A DNA stretch of 62,812 nucleotides. Source: a virus. Position 1 is the first letter of the stretch. The number at the start of each line of letters is the position of its first letter. The DNA is taken from the IMG/VR virus record IMGVR_UViG_3300019458_000022. One strand, given 5' to 3'. Under the pieces are notes generated by a model. That model did not search any database, was not told where the DNA came from, and saw only the letters and a program-made list of their open reading frames with translations. The position numbers and the translations under genes were made by a program. Positions 1 through 34,469 of this stretch are shown here, piece by piece.

Positions 1-17
1 AAAGGAGGTCACTTGAC

Positions 18-628
18 GTCGCAGGCTCTCAACCCCTGCGCCGGTATTGACACCACAGGGACAATTTCCTCGTGCGGACGGTGCTCGTAGTCGCGAGCAC
101 GAAGCCCCCGCGCTGGCATTGCTGCCGGACCCAGCCGCCCGCCGCTCACGGCACCCGAGATGTCGCGAGCACGAAGCCCCCGCGCTGGCATTGCTCCGAG
201 GGGATGCTGATCGGCAAGTTCCCGGGCCCGAAGTCGCGAGCACGAAGCCCCCGCGCTGGCATTGCTCCCAGGGCAGAGGAACGGCATGTGGTGCGACCTG
301 CCCGTCGCGAGCACGAAGCCCCCGCGCTGGCATTGCTCCCCGGGTGATCGCGGTGAGGTACCACTAGGCGAACTGGTCGCGAGCACGAAGCCCCCGCGCT
401 GGCATTGCTCCCGGACCATCCGAGGACCGACCCCCGCGGCCATGCCATGTCGCGAGCACGAAGCCCCCGCGCTGGCATTGCTCCTGATTCGCCTCCGGAA
501 CTTCGAAGTGCGAACCGGCCTGTCGCGAGCACGAAGCCCCCGCGCTGGCATTGCTCCTAACCGTCGACGAGATTCAGGATCGGCCGAGTAATGTCGCGAG
601 CACGAAGCCCCCGCGCTGGCATTGCTCC
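18..628 (-). CRISPR. CRISPR array: 8 copies of a 36-bp repeat plus 1 divergent trailer repeat, with 8 spacers of 35-37 bp
   Basis: Repeat GTCGCGAGCACGAAGCCCCCGCGCTGGCATTGCTCC at 90 (1 mismatch), 162, 233, 304, 376, 449, 522 and 593. Divergent copy at 18-53 (24/36 identical). The minus-strand form ends in GCGAC, as type V repeats often do. The leader lies on the cas12 side. Confidence 0.97.
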
Positions 629-805
629 TGCTCCTACGAATCCATCTGAGCGAGAAGCATTTATTGAGCGGATTGCGAGCGCCGTCCTTTTCACGCGGCT
701 TTCTGCCCGATTGTCAAAGACCCAAACGTCCCGTAACTGCCTGGCTGTCAACGACCGCGAGCATCCCGTCGCACAACCTGGATCACCGGGGTGCTCGCGG
801 CTCGA
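629..805 (-). promoter_or_regulatory. CRISPR leader containing a 14-bp inverted repeat (755-768 / 787-800)
   Basis: Non-coding gap between the cas12 stop and the first repeat. CCGCGAGCATCCCG...CGGGGTGCTCGCGG, 13/14 complementary. Confidence 0.75.
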
Positions 806-2506
806 TCACGCCCCGATGTTCGTGGCCGCGTTGTCGTCCTGATCCCATTCGGTTCCGCAGGCGGTGCAACGATGCCTGAGGATCTTGCGGTTCCAGGTCT
901 GGATCGACCCGCAGGCGTGGCACTTTGCCGTCGTATTCTTCGCATTGACGAGCACGGTCTCGGCCATGCCCTCCTTGATGCACTTGAGGAGTTCCGAGAG
1001 GCATGCATCGCGGACGTGCTCCTTCAAGGCACCGTCCTTCGGCTCCTGCTCGGCCTCCGGCGTCTCGTGGAAGTCCCGGAGATCCAGCTTCTCGACCCTC
1101 GCCGTGTGGTAGGCCCGCCGCCTCTCCGCGATGAAGTTCCTGAAGATGTCGGTGCGGCGGTTCTGAAGCTGGTCGCGCAGGTTCGACTGGTACTCGCAGA
1201 GGTGCCGATCGTGCTTGCGCCACTCCTCCAGGGTCTTGAAGATCTCGTCGTCTCCCTGGAAGCGGGCATCGCGCCAGCGGATGACGAGCCGGGCAAGCCT
1301 GGCCTGCGACTTCCACTGGGCGACCGTCCTGGCGGCTTCACGGAGCCAGTCGGGCAGGTTCTTCTGGTTCTTGAACCACTCGACGAAATCGGCGCGCATC
1401 TTGTTCATGTTCTTGTCGCGGATCGACTGGATGTCCTCGGTCTTCCTCATCCCCGACATCCAGTGGCCGGGCAGCGCGAGTTCGCCTTCGTTGCCGTCGC
1501 TCCCTTTCCAGTAGGCGACCCGCATCGAGCCGTCCTTGCGCCGCGTCTTGCCGTCGTCCCCGGTCACGCGCCAGCCCACGTCGATCGAGACCGTTCCCTC
1601 GGCCGCGCAGTCCGGCTTGTTCCATCCGATGGCCCTGGAAAGCACGAACTGGACCCGCCATTCGCAGTGCGTGCCGATCCGGCGGCGGACCAGATGCACC
1701 CACTTGATCTTGGCGTCCCAGGGAATGGGACGGTGAAGGACGATGGGAATGACGGCGAAGACGGGCGCGCCGCTTTCGTCGCTTCCGACGCGGAAACGGA
1801 CGCGCGTCCGGAGCCTCGCGGCCTTGCTCAGGCGCGGACCGATGAAGTCCGGGGGTTCCTCGATGGGCAGCGGGTCGATCTGGATTCGCCTATCCCGTCC
1901 GGCAAACGCCTCCTCCGGCGAAATCCCGTGCTGCACCTGGACGGCCAGGTGTCCGCCGCCGTCGCGACGCGAGAATTGGGGCGGCGGACCGCTCCTGTCC
2001 ACCGTGGTCCCGATGAAAAGGCGCGTTCCCCAGTAGAGCCCCATCCGGCCGATCGTGGCGTAGAGCCGCTTCTTCTTTTCCTCCGCGCGGCCGTCGATCT
2101 CGGCGCCGATAGGCTCCCAGGCTTCCGACGCGAATAGCTCCGTTCGGATGGCCTTCCGTTCCTTGCAGAGCCGCTTCAGTTCCGTAGCCGAGGCGCCCGC
2201 GCGCTTGGCGGCCTCGGCCGGGATTACCTTTGTTCGGGCGAACGCGCTCACCTGGTTGATCGTGTTCCTGGCGTGGTTCAGTTCGGCGTTCGTCGCCGTG
2301 ATCGCCGCCTCGATCCTCACAAGGTCGGGCGACATCCTGCAAAGCGCGGCGTCGGTCTTTCTCCGCCGGTCGCGTTCGACCGCCACGAGCGCATTCCGGT
2401 ACCGGCGCGCGAGTTCCATCTGCTGGTCCACGAACTCCGCCGCTTCGACCGGGGGTTTTGCGCCGTAGGAGTAGAATCGGGAGGGCAGGCTGTCATTCCC
2501 AAACAT
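806..2506 (-). CDS. cas12m: Type V-M (V-U1/C2c4) Cas12m-like effector, about 566 aa
   Basis: Adjacent to the array. Cas12m-type motifs GLYWG, RRDGGGHLAVQVQ, LHRPIP, AQWKS. RuvC-I SIDVGWR, RuvC-II VEKLDL, CxxC-CxxC zinc finger, RuvC-III DQDDNAATNI. SD AAGAGGAG upstream of ATG 2506. Confidence 0.9.
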   Translation of the reverse strand: MFGNDSLPSRFYSYGAKPPVEAAEFVDQQMELARRYRNALVAVERDRRRKTDAALCRMSPDLVRIEAAITATNAELNHARNTINQVSAFARTKVIPAEAAKRAGASATELKRLCKERKAIRTELFASEAWEPIGAEIDGRAEEKKKRLYATIGRMGLYWGTRLFIGTTVDRSGPPPQFSRRDGGGHLAVQVQHGISPEEAFAGRDRRIQIDPLPIEEPPDFIGPRLSKAARLRTRVRFRVGSDESGAPVFAVIPIVLHRPIPWDAKIKWVHLVRRRIGTHCEWRVQFVLSRAIGWNKPDCAAEGTVSIDVGWRVTGDDGKTRRKDGSMRVAYWKGSDGNEGELALPGHWMSGMRKTEDIQSIRDKNMNKMRADFVEWFKNQKNLPDWLREAARTVAQWKSQARLARLVIRWRDARFQGDDEIFKTLEEWRKHDRHLCEYQSNLRDQLQNRRTDIFRNFIAERRRAYHTARVEKLDLRDFHETPEAEQEPKDGALKEHVRDACLSELLKCIKEGMAETVLVNAKNTTAKCHACGSIQTWNRKILRHRCTACGTEWDQDDNAATNIGA

Positions 2507-2545
2507 ACGTTCTCCTCTTCTTAGGCAAGACCCATGCCTGTGCAA

Positions 2546-2573
2546 ATGTTAACACTTGTGGACTCGGTGTCAA
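2546..2573 (-). promoter_or_regulatory. sigma70-type promoter of cas12m
   Basis: TTGACA-16 bp-TAACAT with an extended -10 TG. Confidence 0.7.
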
Positions 2574-2815
2574 GGGGATATTTGATCCTCGCGCTTTCCG
2601 GAGCGTCGGCATCCGAGCGCAGACTTGCGACGCTTTTCGCGCCTGATCCTTGCCCACTCCATCTTGGCCGCGAAGGCGATCCTCTGCATGTCCTCGGACG
2701 TGGGCGCGTCTACATCCTCCCCGATGTCGGCCGTGACGATATCGTGCATGACGAGACCGCCTGCTGCGTAGGTCGGCGGTTTCCAACCCACCGAGATGTA
2801 TCGTGCTTTGGTCAT
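2570..2815 (-). CDS. hypothetical protein
   Basis: ORF in an overlapping minus-strand chain. Confidence 0.55.
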   Translation of the reverse strand: MTKARYISVGWKPPTYAAGGLVMHDIVTADIGEDVDAPTSEDMQRIAFAAKMEWARIRREKRRKSALGCRRSGKREDQISP

Positions 2816-3069
2816 ACCTTCCGATCCTCCCCGGAGGGTTGGTCGAGCTTCGCGCTACGAATGTCCTCGACCAACTTCTTCATGGCGCCGACCGCTTTCG
2901 ACTTGCTGGCGTAGACCGGTTGCGTGCTCAGAAGATCGGAATGAAGCTGCCCGTCCCTGTAGAGGGATATCCAGCCGGTCCATTTGCCGCCGACCGGGCC
3001 GCCCGCGAGACACCTGATGTCGTTGTCCGGATTCTGGATCATCAGCGCCGTCAGCATGCTTATACCCAC
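2812..3069 (-). CDS. hypothetical protein
   Basis: ORF with SD GGAGGAG, overlaps the next gene. Confidence 0.6.
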   Translation of the reverse strand: MGISMLTALMIQNPDNDIRCLAGGPVGGKWTGWISLYRDGQLHSDLLSTQPVYASKSKAVGAMKKLVEDIRSAKLDQPSGEDRKV

Positions 3070-3135
3070 GCGATCTCCTCCCCAGGCTAGACGATAGAAA
3101 AGATCCAGTACCGATCGGAGTTCTCCGCGGAACGA

Positions 3136-3354
3136 TCAGGACTCGCTTTTCATCATCGACTTCATGGCCTCGTCCGCGATCCGGACCGCCTCGATCACGC
3201 GAGGCCAGCAGGCCGGGCACCAGATGTTCTTCCAGTGCCCGAGGCAGGCGTTGAGGTCGATGGAGACCTGCTTCTTTTCCCGCTGCACGATTACCTCATC
3301 CCCGCCCTTGTTCCACAGCGGCTCGAAACCCTGTTCCTTGAGGTCGCTCGTCAT
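3136..3354 (-). CDS. hypothetical small protein
   Basis: SD AAGGAG; CPAC motif. Confidence 0.6.
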   Translation of the reverse strand: MTSDLKEQGFEPLWNKGGDEVIVQREKKQVSIDLNACLGHWKNIWCPACWPRVIEAVRIADEAMKSMMKSES

Positions 3355-5765: not shown

Positions 5766-6608
5766 TTAGAGGATCGGTTTACCAATTACACGCTGTCGTA
5801 CATGAAACCTGACAAGGCGCTGGAACTGATCCGGGTTGGTCCGCGCAAGCTCGGAGACCGCTGGCATTCGGAGCAGCTTCTCCTCGATCTCGGCCTTATG
5901 CTGTTCGGCCAGGGGAGGGAGATCGCCGCCGGTCTCCCAGTCCTTTACCTCTGGAAGCGACGCCAGTTCGCGGTCAATGGCATTCAGGATCTCCGCGGCC
6001 GAGTCCCTCAATGCGCCCATCGTTTCGACGAGCCCGAAGACCGACCTGCTATTCAAGGCCGAAATGACCGCTCGTAAGACTTCCGCATCCATCGAACCGA
6101 AAACGGCCGAGCCGGAAAGCGACTGTACGGCCGCTCGATAGCCCCGGTCGTAGGCGTCCTTGGCCTTCTGGTCGTCCGGGAAATGGTTCCGGAGGTTGCC
6201 GATAAGCTTCGCCGCCAGACCGCGGCCGATCTTGTCCCTGGTCGTGAGCCGGGACGCCTGGACGACCTTTTCAAGCTTCCGGTCCTGATGGGCAACAAAA
6301 AGCCCCCATCCGGACGGAAGGTCGTTCCATTTGACCACGTTCTCGGCCGCGACCACGTAAAAGTAGTCGCAGAATCCGGCGGTCACAAAGCTCTTCCCGG
6401 GATCTCGGAGTTCGACGAGCCAATCCGGGCGCGTCCTTTTGATCTCGAACCCGATGATCTCCAGGTCGTCCACGAAACGCAGGGCCAGGGCGTCCGGTTC
6501 GACGCCTTCATCCCGGAGAACGGGATGGTCGAGGACGCAGTAGCCCTCGAACTCGCCCTCGATGAGGGCGAGGATCTCGCTCTCGCTAAGAAGCGGCGTC
6601 GCCATCAT
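5766..6608 (-). CDS. MmcB-like PD-(D/E)XK nuclease-domain protein
   Basis: PDALA...GFEIKRTRPDWLVEL.DP.K...CDYFYVV...LPSGWGL. Confidence 0.75.
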   Translation of the reverse strand: MMATPLLSESEILALIEGEFEGYCVLDHPVLRDEGVEPDALALRFVDDLEIIGFEIKRTRPDWLVELRDPGKSFVTAGFCDYFYVVAAENVVKWNDLPSGWGLFVAHQDRKLEKVVQASRLTTRDKIGRGLAAKLIGNLRNHFPDDQKAKDAYDRGYRAAVQSLSGSAVFGSMDAEVLRAVISALNSRSVFGLVETMGALRDSAAEILNAIDRELASLPEVKDWETGGDLPPLAEQHKAEIEEKLLRMPAVSELARTNPDQFQRLVRFHVRQRVIGKPIL

Positions 6609-7056
6609 CGGCGTCCGGTTTCCGGACGATGGTGGGCTTGGAGACATTGCTCTTCCTCTGCTCCTTGATGAACTCCAGGTCGTCTTTTCGCCCGTCCACG
6701 TAGTCCTCGCCCGTCCGCGTGATCCGGTAGAGCCGGGGCTTGGGCCCCTTGACCTTGGCGCCCTGGATCGCCGCGAGCAGCTTGAGCAGCTTCTCGGCAT
6801 CCTCGCCGTCGATGGCGTGCCGGGTCTTGAGCGTCTCGACCTCCCTTTCGGTGAGGATCATGATCATGCCGCTTTTGAGGAGCTTCCGGAGGCGCTCGGA
6901 GACCTCGTGGGCGGGATCGCCGTAGGGGGCGAGGCACTTATGGAAGTGATCGAGGACGTCCCGGGAGGTGAAGGCCGACTGCTTGGCCGCCCACGCGAGG
7001 ATCTCGATGGTGTGCAGGCTGGCGGTCTCGTTGTAGAAGCCCGGCCGGTTGCCCAC
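6586..7056 (-). CDS. winged-helix DNA-binding protein (leaderless)
   Basis: VSERLRKLLKSGMI and RLYRITRTG wing motif; GTG 7 nt after the -10 box. Confidence 0.6.
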   Translation of the reverse strand: MGNRPGFYNETASLHTIEILAWAAKQSAFTSRDVLDHFHKCLAPYGDPAHEVSERLRKLLKSGMIMILTEREVETLKTRHAIDGEDAEKLLKLLAAIQGAKVKGPKPRLYRITRTGEDYVDGRKDDLEFIKEQRKSNVSKPTIVRKPDADDGDAAS

Positions 7057-7204: not shown

Positions 7205-8398
7205 CTACCGGCGCTTCGGAGGACGCGCTGGCTGGCCCGCGGGCGCGCTGGACGTGGGGGGACCTTCTCCCAATAGATCGGCCAGGGGATCGTCGTCCCT
7301 GGGCGCTTCCTGGCCATCCCCGAGGATCAGGCGCTCCAGGGCCTCCATGCCCTCGGTCGAGATCCGCTTCATCGACCCCAGGTAGATGTCGGTCGTGTTG
7401 AGGTTCTTGTGGCCGAGCTTCTCCTTGATCTTCTTCACGTCCATTCCCATCTGGTGGAGGGTCCGCGCGGCTAGATGCCGGATGCCGTGGACGTGGAGGT
7501 GGACCTCGGTCTCGTCTATCCCGGCCTGGCGCCCGCGGCTTTTGACCATCTGGTCGAGCGCCGAGGGCGCGAGCGGCCCTTCGCCGTCCCGGCGGTGGAG
7601 CCCCCGGGCCTGGACCAGGTACTTCCCGGCGTCGGTCGTGGCGACGAAAACCGGGCTCTCCCGGGTCATCTTCCGACCGCTCGCCTTCCAGTAGTCGAGG
7701 ATCGCCTCCCAGACGATCGACGTAAGCTCGACCTTCTGCTCGTCCCCGCCCTTCATGATGAATCGGATGTAGGGCTTCCCGCCGTCCCGGCTGAAGTCGG
7801 CGATCCGGAGGTTCATGATCTCCTTGCGGCGCCTGGTCGTGTAGAGGATGAGCCAGAGGATCGCGTAATCGCGCTTTCCGAGGAGGGTCTTACGGTCGCA
7901 GGTGTCGAGAATCTTTTTGAATTCGTCCTTGTTCATCTCCCGGAGGTCGCCCGACTTCTGGTAGGGCTGGATGGTCGGGAGGCGCTCCTTCACGGTCCGG
8001 AACGGGTTCGATTGGATGAGCGACTGGCCCTTGGTGTCCTTGGGCCGGGTCATAAAATCGAAGAAGGAACTGCATGCGGCAATGTAGTTGATGATCGTCC
8101 GGGGCTTCTTCCCCTCAGATTCGAGGTACGCGATGTAGGAGGTTATGTGGGTGGTTGTCACGTCCTGGGGCGACAGCACCGGCGGCTGGAGCCGCGCCAG
8201 GAAGTCGAAGAAGTCCCGGAGCGCGACCTCGTAGGTCGCCCAGGTCTGGGGTTTGCAGGTGGACTTGAAGTCGTAAAGGGCCATGGCCTCCGGCCGCGGG
8301 AAGAAGATCTCGGTGCTTCCCCGTGGGTCCCGGAGGACGAGCGTCAGTTTCTCCGGCTTGACCAGAGCCGGGAGGCTCGACGCCTTGTGAGGCTTCAC
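7205..8398 (-). CDS. XerC/D-like tyrosine recombinase
   Basis: SAM-like N-terminus; RDYAIL.LILYTTRR, HGIRH, LGHKNLNTTDIY catalytic motifs. Confidence 0.93.
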   Translation of the reverse strand: MKPHKASSLPALVKPEKLTLVLRDPRGSTEIFFPRPEAMALYDFKSTCKPQTWATYEVALRDFFDFLARLQPPVLSPQDVTTTHITSYIAYLESEGKKPRTIINYIAACSSFFDFMTRPKDTKGQSLIQSNPFRTVKERLPTIQPYQKSGDLREMNKDEFKKILDTCDRKTLLGKRDYAILWLILYTTRRRKEIMNLRIADFSRDGGKPYIRFIMKGGDEQKVELTSIVWEAILDYWKASGRKMTRESPVFVATTDAGKYLVQARGLHRRDGEGPLAPSALDQMVKSRGRQAGIDETEVHLHVHGIRHLAARTLHQMGMDVKKIKEKLGHKNLNTTDIYLGSMKRISTEGMEALERLILGDGQEAPRDDDPLADLLGEGPPTSSAPAGQPARPPKRR

Positions 8399-12997: not shown

Positions 12998-13075
12998 TGG
13001 CGGGCAGGGAAGGACTTGAACCTCCGACCTCCACCGGCCTAAGCCAGCGGCGCTCTTTCTCTGAGCTACCTGCCC
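12998..13075 (-). ncRNA. tRNA-like RNA 2: the anticodon arm is an 8-bp stem with a UUAG tetraloop
   Basis: GGGCAGG/CCTGCCC acceptor, GCTC/GAGC D stem, GGAGG-TTCAAGT-CCTTC T arm, encoded G-CCA; CCGCTGGC-TTAG-GCCGGTGG replaces the 7-nt anticodon loop. Confidence 0.8.
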
Positions 13076-13615: not shown

Positions 13616-13689
13616 TGGTGCTCCCGCCGAGACTTGAACTCGGCTGCGGGCTTTTAGAGAGCCCTGGCCATCCGCTGGCCCACGGGAGC
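13616..13689 (-). tRNA. amber suppressor tRNA, anticodon CUA
   Basis: GCTCCCG/CGGGAGC acceptor, GGCC/GGCC D stem, GGGCT-CTCTAAA-AGCCC anticodon arm, CCGAG-TTCAAGT-CTCGG T arm, A-CCA. Confidence 0.92.
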
Positions 13690-13736: not shown

Positions 13737-14990
13737 CGATCCCCAGCCCTAAAGGGCGGGGCTTTTGACTGAGCTATGAGGACGACCGAAGAAGTCCAGA
13801 AGCTCGCCAATACGGGTGGCGTTACGATCACCGCGTATCTCTCGCGGTTCCACCCCGCCCGCGGCGACGTTCACGGAGGCGTTCGCATCCGCGTCCATCC
13901 TCCCGCAGGTTGCGCAAAGAAACTTCGCCCCGTCCCGTCGTCCGATCTTGGAGCATTTGTGGCAGGTCACGCTTGTGCGGAACGGGTTGACGTGCTCCGT
14001 CACGAGCCCGACGCGGAGTGCCTTGTATTCGGAGAACGTCTGGCACTCCCGAAAGGCCCACCCAGCAACCATCCGGTTGAGATGGGGGTTGCGCGTCCGG
14101 GTGCGCTTCCGGATTCCTTTCAAATCCTCGAACCGGATGACGCCGAACCCACCCCTGAGAGCTTCCTCCACGATGGACTTCGAGACGTTGTGGTTCACCC
14201 ATGCCTTCCAGCGCCGCTCCCTGCCGCTCAAGCGTCTCAGGGCGCGCTTGGCGCCCCGAGTGCCTTTGCTCTGAAGCGACGCCCGGACACGGGCAAACTC
14301 CGCTTTCTTGGCCTGAACTGCTACACCAGATATTGTCTTGCCGCTCGACATCGTGGCGATGTTGTGGATGCCGAGGTCAATCCCGAGAGGCGGGCCTCCG
14401 CGCTTCGGAGGTTCTGTTTCTTCAATAGCGATGTGGATGTCCCAGTTCTTGCCGTTCCGAACCACACGAGCACAGGTAGGTTGTTTCCCGACAAGTTGCT
14501 CCCTTTGGAACCCGCCGATCTTGAGCGGGATGTGGAGCCTTCCTTTGAGCGTAGTCACGGAGACTGTCTCGTCCGTCTCTCGGTAGTCGAAGATTCGAGC
14601 ATCGTAGTCGATGCTCGTTGGACGAAACTCGGAAACGCGCTTTCCGCGCTTGGCGGCGATCTTGACGGCGTAGGCGACCCGAGCGATGGCACGGATGGCG
14701 AGGTTGGCGGAGAGGCCGAAGTCCTTCCGTATCTCCCGGTAGCAAGCGCGCTGGAGCTTGACCTTGTTGGAGGTCTTGAGCCTACGGGAATGGCCGAGGA
14801 CGGCGTTGCAGGCATTGGCGAACGCCTTGGTTGTTTCGAAGAGCGCCTGTTCCATAATTGGCGTGGGAGCCATCCTGCATTTGACGGTACGTTGCATTAA
14901 GAAGAAGCTATCACATATGGTTTTTGATGTCAAAGAGGGCGGCGCTTCCTCCCCACGGCTGAAGCCGGGGGCTTCCGCGCCGTCCAATTC
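13733..14990 (-). mobile_element. IS200/IS605-family (IS1341-like, TnpB-only) element
   Basis: Left-end hairpin GAAG-CCCCCGGCTTCAGCCGTGGGG after target TCAC; right-end hairpin AAAG-CCCCGCCCTTTAGGGCTGGGG ending in TTAC; no tnpA. Confidence 0.85.
13749..14897 (-). CDS. tnpB: RNA-guided endonuclease TnpB
   Basis: LGIDLG, FEDLKGIR, TSVTCHKC...CATC, DADANASVNV; own promoter TTGACA at about 14927. Confidence 0.93.
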   Translation of the reverse strand: MQRTVKCRMAPTPIMEQALFETTKAFANACNAVLGHSRRLKTSNKVKLQRACYREIRKDFGLSANLAIRAIARVAYAVKIAAKRGKRVSEFRPTSIDYDARIFDYRETDETVSVTTLKGRLHIPLKIGGFQREQLVGKQPTCARVVRNGKNWDIHIAIEETEPPKRGGPPLGIDLGIHNIATMSSGKTISGVAVQAKKAEFARVRASLQSKGTRGAKRALRRLSGRERRWKAWVNHNVSKSIVEEALRGGFGVIRFEDLKGIRKRTRTRNPHLNRMVAGWAFRECQTFSEYKALRVGLVTEHVNPFRTSVTCHKCSKIGRRDGAKFLCATCGRMDADANASVNVAAGGVEPREIRGDRNATRIGELLDFFGRPHSSVKSPAL

Positions 14991-15032
14991 GTGAACATGG
15001 AAAGGGTTCCCCGAGGGCGGTAGAATAACCGG

Positions 15033-15488
15033 ATGGGACGTCGCATCACGGAGGCTGAGTTCCAAAGCGTCCTCGCGGAGGTCCGCGACAGGATTCTTGA
15101 TCGGATGGCCGAGACGGGCTTCTGGAACGAAGGCGTCCTGCGTCGCGACGCCACCACCTGGGACATCAACAACGGTTGCTGCGAGGAATTCGCCGACGAA
15201 GTGATCCTAGAACTCGCCCAAAGGTACGGCCAGGGCTTCCCCGGCGAACATTACGAGACTTTCGCCTACCGCGCAACCGGCGCCGAAGCCATCGAACTTC
15301 CCGATCCCGACGACCCCGACGATTTGCTAGGTCATGCCGTTGTCATTTGGAGAGGGCGGTACTACGACGCGGAGTGCATCACCGGCGTAAAGGACTGGAA
15401 GACGCTTCCACTTGTCAAGAATCGTGATCTTAGCCGCCAGGAGATGCTCCTCAAGCGCCGAGGAGACGCGCGTTGGAGTAGGTGCTGA
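15033..15488 (+). CDS. papain-like fold protein (leaderless)
   Basis: INNGCCEEFA...GHAVV..RGRYYDAE; ATG 6 nt after TAGAAT. Confidence 0.65.
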   Translation: MGRRITEAEFQSVLAEVRDRILDRMAETGFWNEGVLRRDATTWDINNGCCEEFADEVILELAQRYGQGFPGEHYETFAYRATGAEAIELPDPDDPDDLLGHAVVIWRGRYYDAECITGVKDWKTLPLVKNRDLSRQEMLLKRRGDARWSRC

Positions 15489-33690: not shown

Positions 33691-34469
33691 GCCGACTTCT
33701 CCAGTTGCTCTGCGCTCACGGTCGCCAGGAGGTCCCGGGTCAGCACCGACTCGACCGGGATGATCGCCCCCGCCACGAGCGGGCGGTAGGTCTCGTGGAC
33801 CGGGACCTTTTCCATTTCGAGGTCCCACTGCCGCTCGACTCCTTGAAGGCCGTAGACGTCGATCCCGAGGAGCTTGGGCGCCACGAATTCCCCTCCCTGG
33901 AAGACGTCCGGATAGTAGAGCGCCTTGTAACCGAGGTTCACGGCGGCACGCTGGACGGCCGGGGCGTCGGCGAAGATGAAGGTGTCGGCTATCAGACGAT
34001 CGGCCTCCTGCTCCACTTCTTTCTTGTCGGAGATCCCTTCCAGTTCCCACTTCAACTCGCTGATGGCCATCTTCGGGTCCATGAGGCTGAAGGGGATGTC
34101 CTCCTCTTCGATGCCTTCTACCCTGTACGAGAATTCGCCGCCCTTGGCGCGGCCGATCAGGCGGTTGTGGAGATATTGGAGGATCTTGAGCATTTCGTCG
34201 TGGTCGAGGCCGCCCCGTACCCCGTATTTCAGCGCCCGGAGGATCTGGAGGAAGGAGTCGTGGTTGTCGCTCGAAAGCTCCAGGATCTTATCGGTATTGA
34301 GCCTGGCGATGTGGACCGTCGAGGTCGGGAGAAATGAGGCTTCCCGCTGGCCCCAGACGTCAGGAGGCCGGAACGACCAGATGATCGCGACGGGAAGCGA
34401 CGGCGTGTACGAGACGCTCTTCCGAACGCCCTTCACTTCTTCCCTCCGGGTCCCGCGGTAAAGTTCCAT
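33687..34469 (-). CDS. ADP-ribosyltransferase-like protein
   Basis: LYRGT...SYTPS..VA. Confidence 0.5.
   Translation of the reverse strand: MELYRGTRREEVKGVRKSVSYTPSLPVAIIWSFRPPDVWGQREASFLPTSTVHIARLNTDKILELSSDNHDSFLQILRALKYGVRGGLDHDEMLKILQYLHNRLIGRAKGGEFSYRVEGIEEEDIPFSLMDPKMAISELKWELEGISDKKEVEQEADRLIADTFIFADAPAVQRAAVNLGYKALYYPDVFQGGEFVAPKLLGIDVYGLQGVERQWDLEMEKVPVHETYRPLVAGAIIPVESVLTRDLLATVSAEQLEKSA

Follow-up and report, generated by a model that had tools for sequence, protein, structure and literature searches.

Does a Cas12m protein that has kept all three catalytic residues of its RuvC domain cut the DNA to which it is guided, or does it only bind it? The question is raised by a CRISPR locus in the IMG/VR virus record IMGVR_UViG_3300019458_000022, from which a stretch of 62,812 nt, here called the window, was analysed. 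Positions 18-2573 (minus strand) form a single compact unit of a promoter, a gene (cas12m) for a 566-amino acid (aa) protein (P0001), a 177-nt leader and an array of nine repeats and eight spacers. A first-pass annotation, made from the sequence alone, had described effector, leader and array as such a unit, and every feature was found where it had been placed. The locus is a genuine, complete minimal type V-M (Cas12m) module with its own array. It is an ordinary further member of the known Cas12m family and not a new nuclease. Its most likely function, to which we assign a probability of about 0.75 by analogy with its relatives, is RNA-guided DNA binding that would silence rival elements or host genes.

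The PADLOC profile Cas12u1 spanned residues 10-564 of the 566 in P0001 (E 4.1e-99); V-U1 is the old name of type V-M. The best solved sequence relative was PDB 23vw_A, matched over the full length (residues 12-564, E 1.5e-67). This entry is titled "CRISPR-associated DNA-binding protein Cas12m", and Table S1 of Bigelyte et al. (PMC11013384) lists the same sequence as TfCas12m. An AlphaFold2 model of P0001, built with 115 homologs, reached a mean predicted local distance difference test score (pLDDT) of 94.7 and a predicted template modelling score (pTM) of 0.89, with long helices at 23-154. Foldseek placed this model with Cas12m2 (8hhl) and GoCas12m (8pm4), at template modelling (TM) scores of 0.80-0.83. 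The predicted fold has the two lobes of type V-M effectors and combines a RuvC domain with a long helical REC insertion and with a TNB domain of the zinc-ribbon type, the last matched by Pfam PF07282 (Cas12f1-like_TNB) at residues 508-564 (E 3.8e-10). The Cas12m-like assignment of the first-pass annotation is therefore upheld by the full-length profile match, by the TM scores and by the CRISPR RNA (crRNA) handle described below.

Cas12f (type V-F) and TnpB have the same RuvC and zinc-ribbon (TNB, PF07282) core. They were the next best structural matches, but at TM scores of only 0.34-0.46 (TnpB about 0.36-0.45), and their hidden Markov model scores fell under the cut-offs. The profile comparison with Cas12m and TnpB proposed in the first-pass annotation thus separated the two, since Cas12u1 matched at full length and the NCBIfam TnpB models stayed far below their thresholds (33.8 bits for guided_TnpB, whose cut-off is 100, and 22 for IS607_TnpB, whose cut-off is 350). 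Cas12f also needs a trans-activating crRNA (tracrRNA) and acts as a dimer, and TnpB works with an omega-RNA at transposon ends; no such feature is present here, where an array stands instead.

Among characterised proteins, TfCas12m (Thermanaerosceptrum fracticalcis, QNB45423.1; 23vw) resembles P0001 in its aspartate-glutamate-aspartate (D-E-D) triad, in size (567 versus 566 aa), in its crRNA-only guide and in its downstream array. Unlike P0001, which is carried by a large phage-like element, it is encoded by a bacterial chromosomal gene, and the two sequences have clearly diverged. TfCas12m has itself been assayed, with no cutting and with plasmid interference at the origin only (PMC11013384), whereas P0001 is known from its sequence and model. 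The founding V-M effectors MmCas12m2 (8hhl/8hio) and GoCas12m (8pm4) share the fold of P0001, coiled-coil REC insertion included, and have a handle like that of the repeat found here, with the same stem and pseudoknot and an end in ...AC. The HR pair of GoCas12m aligned with H258/R259 of P0001 in a HMMER alignment. Both differ from P0001 in having an H-D-D RuvC site, share about 19-22% identity with it and fall in a different clade of the family. MvCas12m from myxophage MV-1 (bioRxiv 10.64898/2026.09.14.751636) and UnCas12m (PMC11013384, Table S2) are likewise virus-associated, with D-E-D and an adjacent array. The MV-1 locus is described in the preprint as lacking cas1/2/4 and tracrRNA and as having eight spacers with no identified targets, as here. 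MvCas12m (610 aa) and UnCas12m come from another host lineage and element, and were compared with P0001 by description.

The array was far beyond chance by its covariance-model scores, at 42.6-44 bits for the eight repeats (E about 1e-7) and 25.1 bits (E 8e-4) for the divergent terminal copy at 18-53. The latter lies at the end distal to the gene, which indicates that the array reads in the direction of the gene. Its sequence is similar to the repeats seen in relatives, for example on the viral contig L014. On the gene strand the 36-nt repeat next to cas12m ends in ...GCGAC and can fold into a Cas12m handle, with a 6-bp stem (-23..-18 with -8..-3) and a 3-bp pseudoknot (-28..-26 with -17..-15). 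These positions agree with the published pairs of PmCas12m, which join -28..-26 to -17..-15 and -23..-20 to -3..-6 (bioRxiv 10.64898/2026.03.26.714355). Covariation was examined across 19 distinct repeats from arrays adjoining relatives of P0001. In this set 95.3% of the cells were paired and 31 cells had changed on both sides, with two-sided changes in all six stem pairs. None of 500 shuffles matched the observed values, and shifted registers were only 32-51% paired. A search for dispersed solitary handles gave one borderline match at 34324-34359 (minus strand; 15.4 bits, E 0.14), which lies within an open reading frame (ORF), keeps the stem in part and lacks the pseudoknot pairing. We treated it as a chance match.

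Guidance by crRNA alone was supported by a computational test for a tracrRNA. No anti-repeat was found near the locus, the best complementarity being 16 nt at a distance of 50 kb (E 0.08), and this absence fits a crRNA-only system. Adaptation genes, reported as missing by the first-pass annotation, were not recovered on wider search either. Cas1, Cas2 and Cas4 had no Pfam or PADLOC match among 96 window ORFs, a scan covering ORFs of at least 60 aa without low G+C at third codon positions (GC3). They were also absent from the genes called along the element up to about 139 kb (on an ENA contig), which adds about 77 kb to the window, and from within 10 kb of three close homologs. The lack of an adaptation module is typical of subtypes derived from V-U.

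The sigma-70-like site at 2573-2546 had no second such site in 1-3200, where 0.4 would be expected, and its consensus match suggests a promoter function upstream of cas12m. TTG 2545, which would give a 579-aa version of the protein, was rejected as the start of cas12m because it falls within or just past the -10 box. No minus-strand terminator-like site was found between cas12m and the array, so the array and the gene may be co-transcribed. Across the relatives compared, no conserved partner gene stood beside cas12m. In the mechanism that we propose, the promoter would drive cas12m and probably also the array behind it. Cas12m would bind the 3′ handle of each repeat (6-bp stem and 3-bp pseudoknot, ending ...GAC) and mature short crRNAs. 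The complex would then bind matching double-stranded DNA (dsDNA) beside a protospacer-adjacent motif (PAM) and, without cutting it, remain bound as a block in the path of transcription or replication. Its likely use would be the silencing of rival mobile elements or host genes.

The RuvC triad, which the first-pass annotation had called intact, is all there. The motifs SIDVGWR, VEKLD and DQDDN were present in P0001, and alignment to D306/E459/D550 of TfCas12m gave D309, E472 and D557 as the catalytic positions, the third being the second D of DQD and not the first. P0001 thus carries the canonical D-E-D of nuclease-active Cas12, which is necessary for cutting but not sufficient. Full D-E-D was found in 97 of the 115 homologs. 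On a tree of 143 proteins it was intact in 122 (about 85%), and at least one triad residue was lost in 21, some of which may be alignment errors. These losses need at least 15 changes, at least nine of them forced by well-supported branches. The clade of P0001 itself (11 rows, support 99) had D-E-D throughout. A viral member without the triad, L046 (DKD), retains a 20-repeat array. Repeated loss of the triad with arrays retained indicates that the triad is favoured but dispensable in the Cas12m family, a distribution that appears to fit a binding-based function better than a nuclease. As a majority state that is repeatedly lost, an intact triad alone does not predict nuclease activity, and the tempting inference from D-E-D to a nuclease is thereby corrected for Cas12m.

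Published assays point in the same direction. The first-pass annotation had taken characterised Cas12m proteins to have a degenerate RuvC. This is true of some but incomplete, because four D-E-D members (MsCas12m, ApCas12m, TfCas12m and UnCas12m, the last from an IMG/VR contig) were among the eight tested by Bigelyte et al. 2024 (PMC11013384), and Omura et al. 2023 (PMC10442227) recognised four Cas12m clades, two of them mostly D-E-D. Cleavage of dsDNA was undetected for all eight proteins, and purified MsCas12m showed neither target nor collateral cleavage; its D274A mutant retained pre-crRNA processing (PMC11013384). TfCas12m halted plasmids only with the origin as target, whereas the nuclease Cas12a was effective at every target (PMC11013384). 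When the HDD site of Cas12m2 was changed to DED, cutting did not return (PMC10442227).

Several points weigh against a role in binding only. Retention of the triad in 85% of the family and in 11 of 11 members of the clade of P0001 argues for a selected role of RuvC. Omura et al. left open DNA hydrolysis by the D-E-D clades (PMC10442227). The D-E-D orthologs tested are distant from P0001, and heterologous assays can yield false negatives. For two of the eight Cas12m proteins tested, not even binding was seen (PMC11013384). The binding-only role of P0001 is itself carried over from assays of characterised relatives, and no protospacer was found for this array, so that targeting and PAM are unproven here.

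In the rival reading, that of the first-pass annotation, P0001 would be competent as a nuclease and would cleave its target DNA by way of the intact D-E-D site. In a model of high confidence, D309, E472 and D557 occupy the RuvC strand and helix elements where they would be expected, the triad is shared with 122 of 143 relatives including the whole of its own clade, and two-metal hydrolysis by clades 3 and 4 was speculated upon by Omura et al. (PMC10442227). We nevertheless consider this unlikely and do not retain the inference. All four of the D-E-D proteins assayed were non-cutting and TfCas12m interfered at the origin only (PMC11013384), the HDD to DED change in Cas12m2 gave no activity back (PMC10442227), and the family has seen at least 9-15 losses of the triad, with arrays kept. 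There is a slim chance that the conservation of D-E-D in this largely element-borne branch reflects a catalytic activity that went unseen when other orthologs were assayed in Escherichia coli and in cell-free systems. Such activity could take the form of target-strand nicking, of cutting of single-stranded or replicating DNA, or of a cut that depends on a host or phage factor. If so, P0001, at 566 aa, would be a natural miniature nuclease guided by crRNA alone. The suggestion that P0001 is a candidate compact editor holds only for a binder used in base or epigenome editing, as already exploited for Cas12m; like other Cas12m proteins, it could serve as a compact DNA-binding scaffold.

The spacers were searched for targets, as the first-pass annotation had proposed, and none was found in the contig itself (~139 kb), INPHARED, PLSDB, IMG/VR or JGI metagenomes. 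The best matches were 11-14 nt in the window and 12 nt in a further ~77 kb of its contig. The whole array had no match among INPHARED phages and two chance matches (E 0.2) among PLSDB plasmids. Exact 24-mers of five spacers were without a match in IMG/VR, and exact 22-mers of two in JGI metagenomes. There was also no match between the array spacers and other sequence windows of the same survey, nor between the spacers of related loci and this window. Since no protospacers were found, a PAM could not be derived.

One relative did have self-matching spacers. L014 (IMGVR_UViG_3300005764_000026) is a 47-kb viral contig with a D-E-D Cas12m relative, and two of its spacers (6158-6196 and 6308-6342) matched the same contig perfectly, 39/39 at 3126-3164 and 35/35 at 3130-3096. 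The two sites abut on opposite strands inside a gene for a Uma2-family putative restriction endonuclease (PF05685, E 2.9e-19), ~850 nt upstream of cas12m, and their flanks had no obvious common PAM. Perfect self-matching spacers would be poorly tolerated by a cutting effector, and we counted them for the binding-only role. An apparent self-target in L040 lay beyond the last repeat and hence belonged to no bona fide spacer, and a match in L042/L043 was dropped because it was located in the leader.

The L014 spacers also bear on the idea that the module regulates genes, its own or those of the host (in lysogeny or takeover, for example), instead of defending against rivals. Regulation suits binding-only effectors, and the terminal repeat, whose hairpin is kept through compensated changes, could make a fixed guide. 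In the present element, however, no spacer matched the ~139 kb available (best 12 nt; no 18-nt seed at two or fewer mismatches), and the 17 nt that follow the terminal repeat and run to the contig end matched nothing else in the window. A regulatory role in place of defence is accordingly doubtful. Least probable is that the module no longer works and is a relic, or that an ordinary TnpB of a transposon happens to lie beside a cluster of repeats: the lack of targets and of adaptation genes, the weak NCBIfam TnpB-family matches and a true TnpB-like ORF elsewhere in the window (13752-15065) would suit it, but the cas12m ORF is intact with promoter and Shine-Dalgarno sequence, seven repeats are exact and the spacers unique, guided_TnpB reached 33.8 bits against its cut-off of 100, the TM score was 0.8 to Cas12m versus about 0.4 to TnpB, and the protein is 100% identical in three assemblies.

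The closest homologs of P0001 were 57-71% identical and all metagenomic. Three that were inspected had the same layout of gene, leader and array, with related repeats; one of them stood at the end of a 191-kb contig (L001), where an integrase likewise lies a few kb upstream. In IMG/VR, a pattern scan recovered relatives (24-43% identity) on 43 viral contigs, many of 50-245 kb, and in about 33-35 of the 43 an array lay 100-350 nt downstream of the gene; a single-protein search for IMG/VR relatives found none. Cas12m modules with arrays are therefore common on viral contigs. This contrasts with a September 2026 preprint in which the D-E-D Cas12m of myxophage MV-1, with eight spacers, is called the first phage case (bioRxiv 10.64898/2026.09.14.751636). 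A scan of species-representative genomes gave three loci only, at no more than 31% identity, but it was limited by its search patterns and leaves absence elsewhere unproven.

The contig from which the window was taken is 175,429 bp long. A 168,645-bp ENA contig and a Logan contig, each ending in or at the array, encode a 100% identical protein, and the first six spacers were identical in a second assembly (L005). Contigs ended within or just past the Cas12m array in three assemblies of the element and in the 191-kb contig of the relative L001. Such ends might mean that the assembler broke at the repeats or that the genome really stops there. The carrier is a roughly 175-kb uncultured, phage-like mobile element, for which "viral" is a plausible label. 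Thirteen PHROG families were matched in the window, which also encodes a tyrosine integrase, a separate TnpB-like ORF (Table 1), an M48 peptidase, a glycosyltransferase and many ORFs without known family. No capsid or terminase was found among the called genes of the ENA contig out to about 139 kb; these genes included helicases, DnaJ, peptide deformylase, a glycosyltransferase cluster, a DUF5131 protein (E 1.4e-65) and a STIV B116-like protein.

Table 1. Positions of the Cas12m locus features and of neighbouring genes in the window
Feature	Position	Strand	Details
Sigma-70-like promoter (putative)	2546-2573	-	TTGACA, 16-nt spacer with TG, TAACAT; 10/12 consensus matches
Shine-Dalgarno AGGAGA	2512-2517	-	4 nt before ATG 2506 of cas12m
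cas12m gene (P0001)	806-2506	-	566 aa; start ATG 2506
RuvC-I Asp codon, D309 (SIDVGWR)	1580-1582	-	Aligns with TfCas12m D306; D in 105/115 homologs
RuvC-II Glu codon, E472 (VEKLD)	1091-1093	-	E in 101/115 homologs; end of model strand 468-472
Zinc-ribbon/TNB cysteines C529, C532, C547, C550	857-922	-	PF07282; CHACG and CTACG motifs
RuvC-III Asp codon, D557 (DQDDN)	836-838	-	Aligns with TfCas12m D550; D in 112/115 homologs
Leader	629-805	-	177 nt, from cas12m stop codon to first repeat
CRISPR array	54-628	-	Eight 36-nt repeats (GGAGCAATGCCAGCGCGGGGGCTTCGTGCTCGCGAC on gene strand); eight spacers of 35-37 nt, all unique
Repeat starts	90, 162, 233, 304, 376, 449, 522, 593		36 nt each; seven exact, copy at 90 with 1 mismatch
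Divergent terminal (trailer-end) repeat	18-53	-	12/36 positions changed; stem kept via compensated changes CGCAGG/CCTGCG
Tyrosine integrase	7208-8398	-	PF00589, E 1.3e-23; about 4.7 kb from cas12m
tRNA-like genes (ARAGORN)	12998-13075, 13616-13689	-	One anticodon undetermined, one read as tRNA-Pyl, CUA (amber-reading)
TnpB-like ORF	13752-15065	-	438 aa; PF01385 OrfB_IS605 E 1.6e-10; PF07282 E 1.5e-13

In BLASTP the TnpB-like ORF showed no similarity to the Cas12m; the tRNA-like cluster begins shortly downstream of it. A 37%-identical homolog of the ORF at 5769-6800 (minus strand) adjoins the integrase of L001, and this end of the two elements is thus partly syntenic. A PADLOC "Csx1" match among the window ORFs could not be assigned to any of ten large ORFs. 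Further along the same element, at about 76.5 kb and 88 kb, two genes (L054:5775-6962 and L055:2732-3895) are paralogs with 29% identity (E 9e-46). Their precomputed PF26125 "AcrVA2-like" labels were not confirmed, with no match in a Pfam scan or a PDB sequence search; AcrVA2 is an anti-CRISPR family against Cas12a. At about 101.8-110 kb in the coordinates of the window's contig (L057:825-9031) there is a run of about ten sugar-modification genes, which include methyltransferases and a polysaccharide pyruvyl transferase as well as several glycosyltransferases. Together with the peptide deformylase, M24 peptidase, DnaJ and cold-shock protein encoded elsewhere on the element, they make up a cargo that is unusual for a mobile element.

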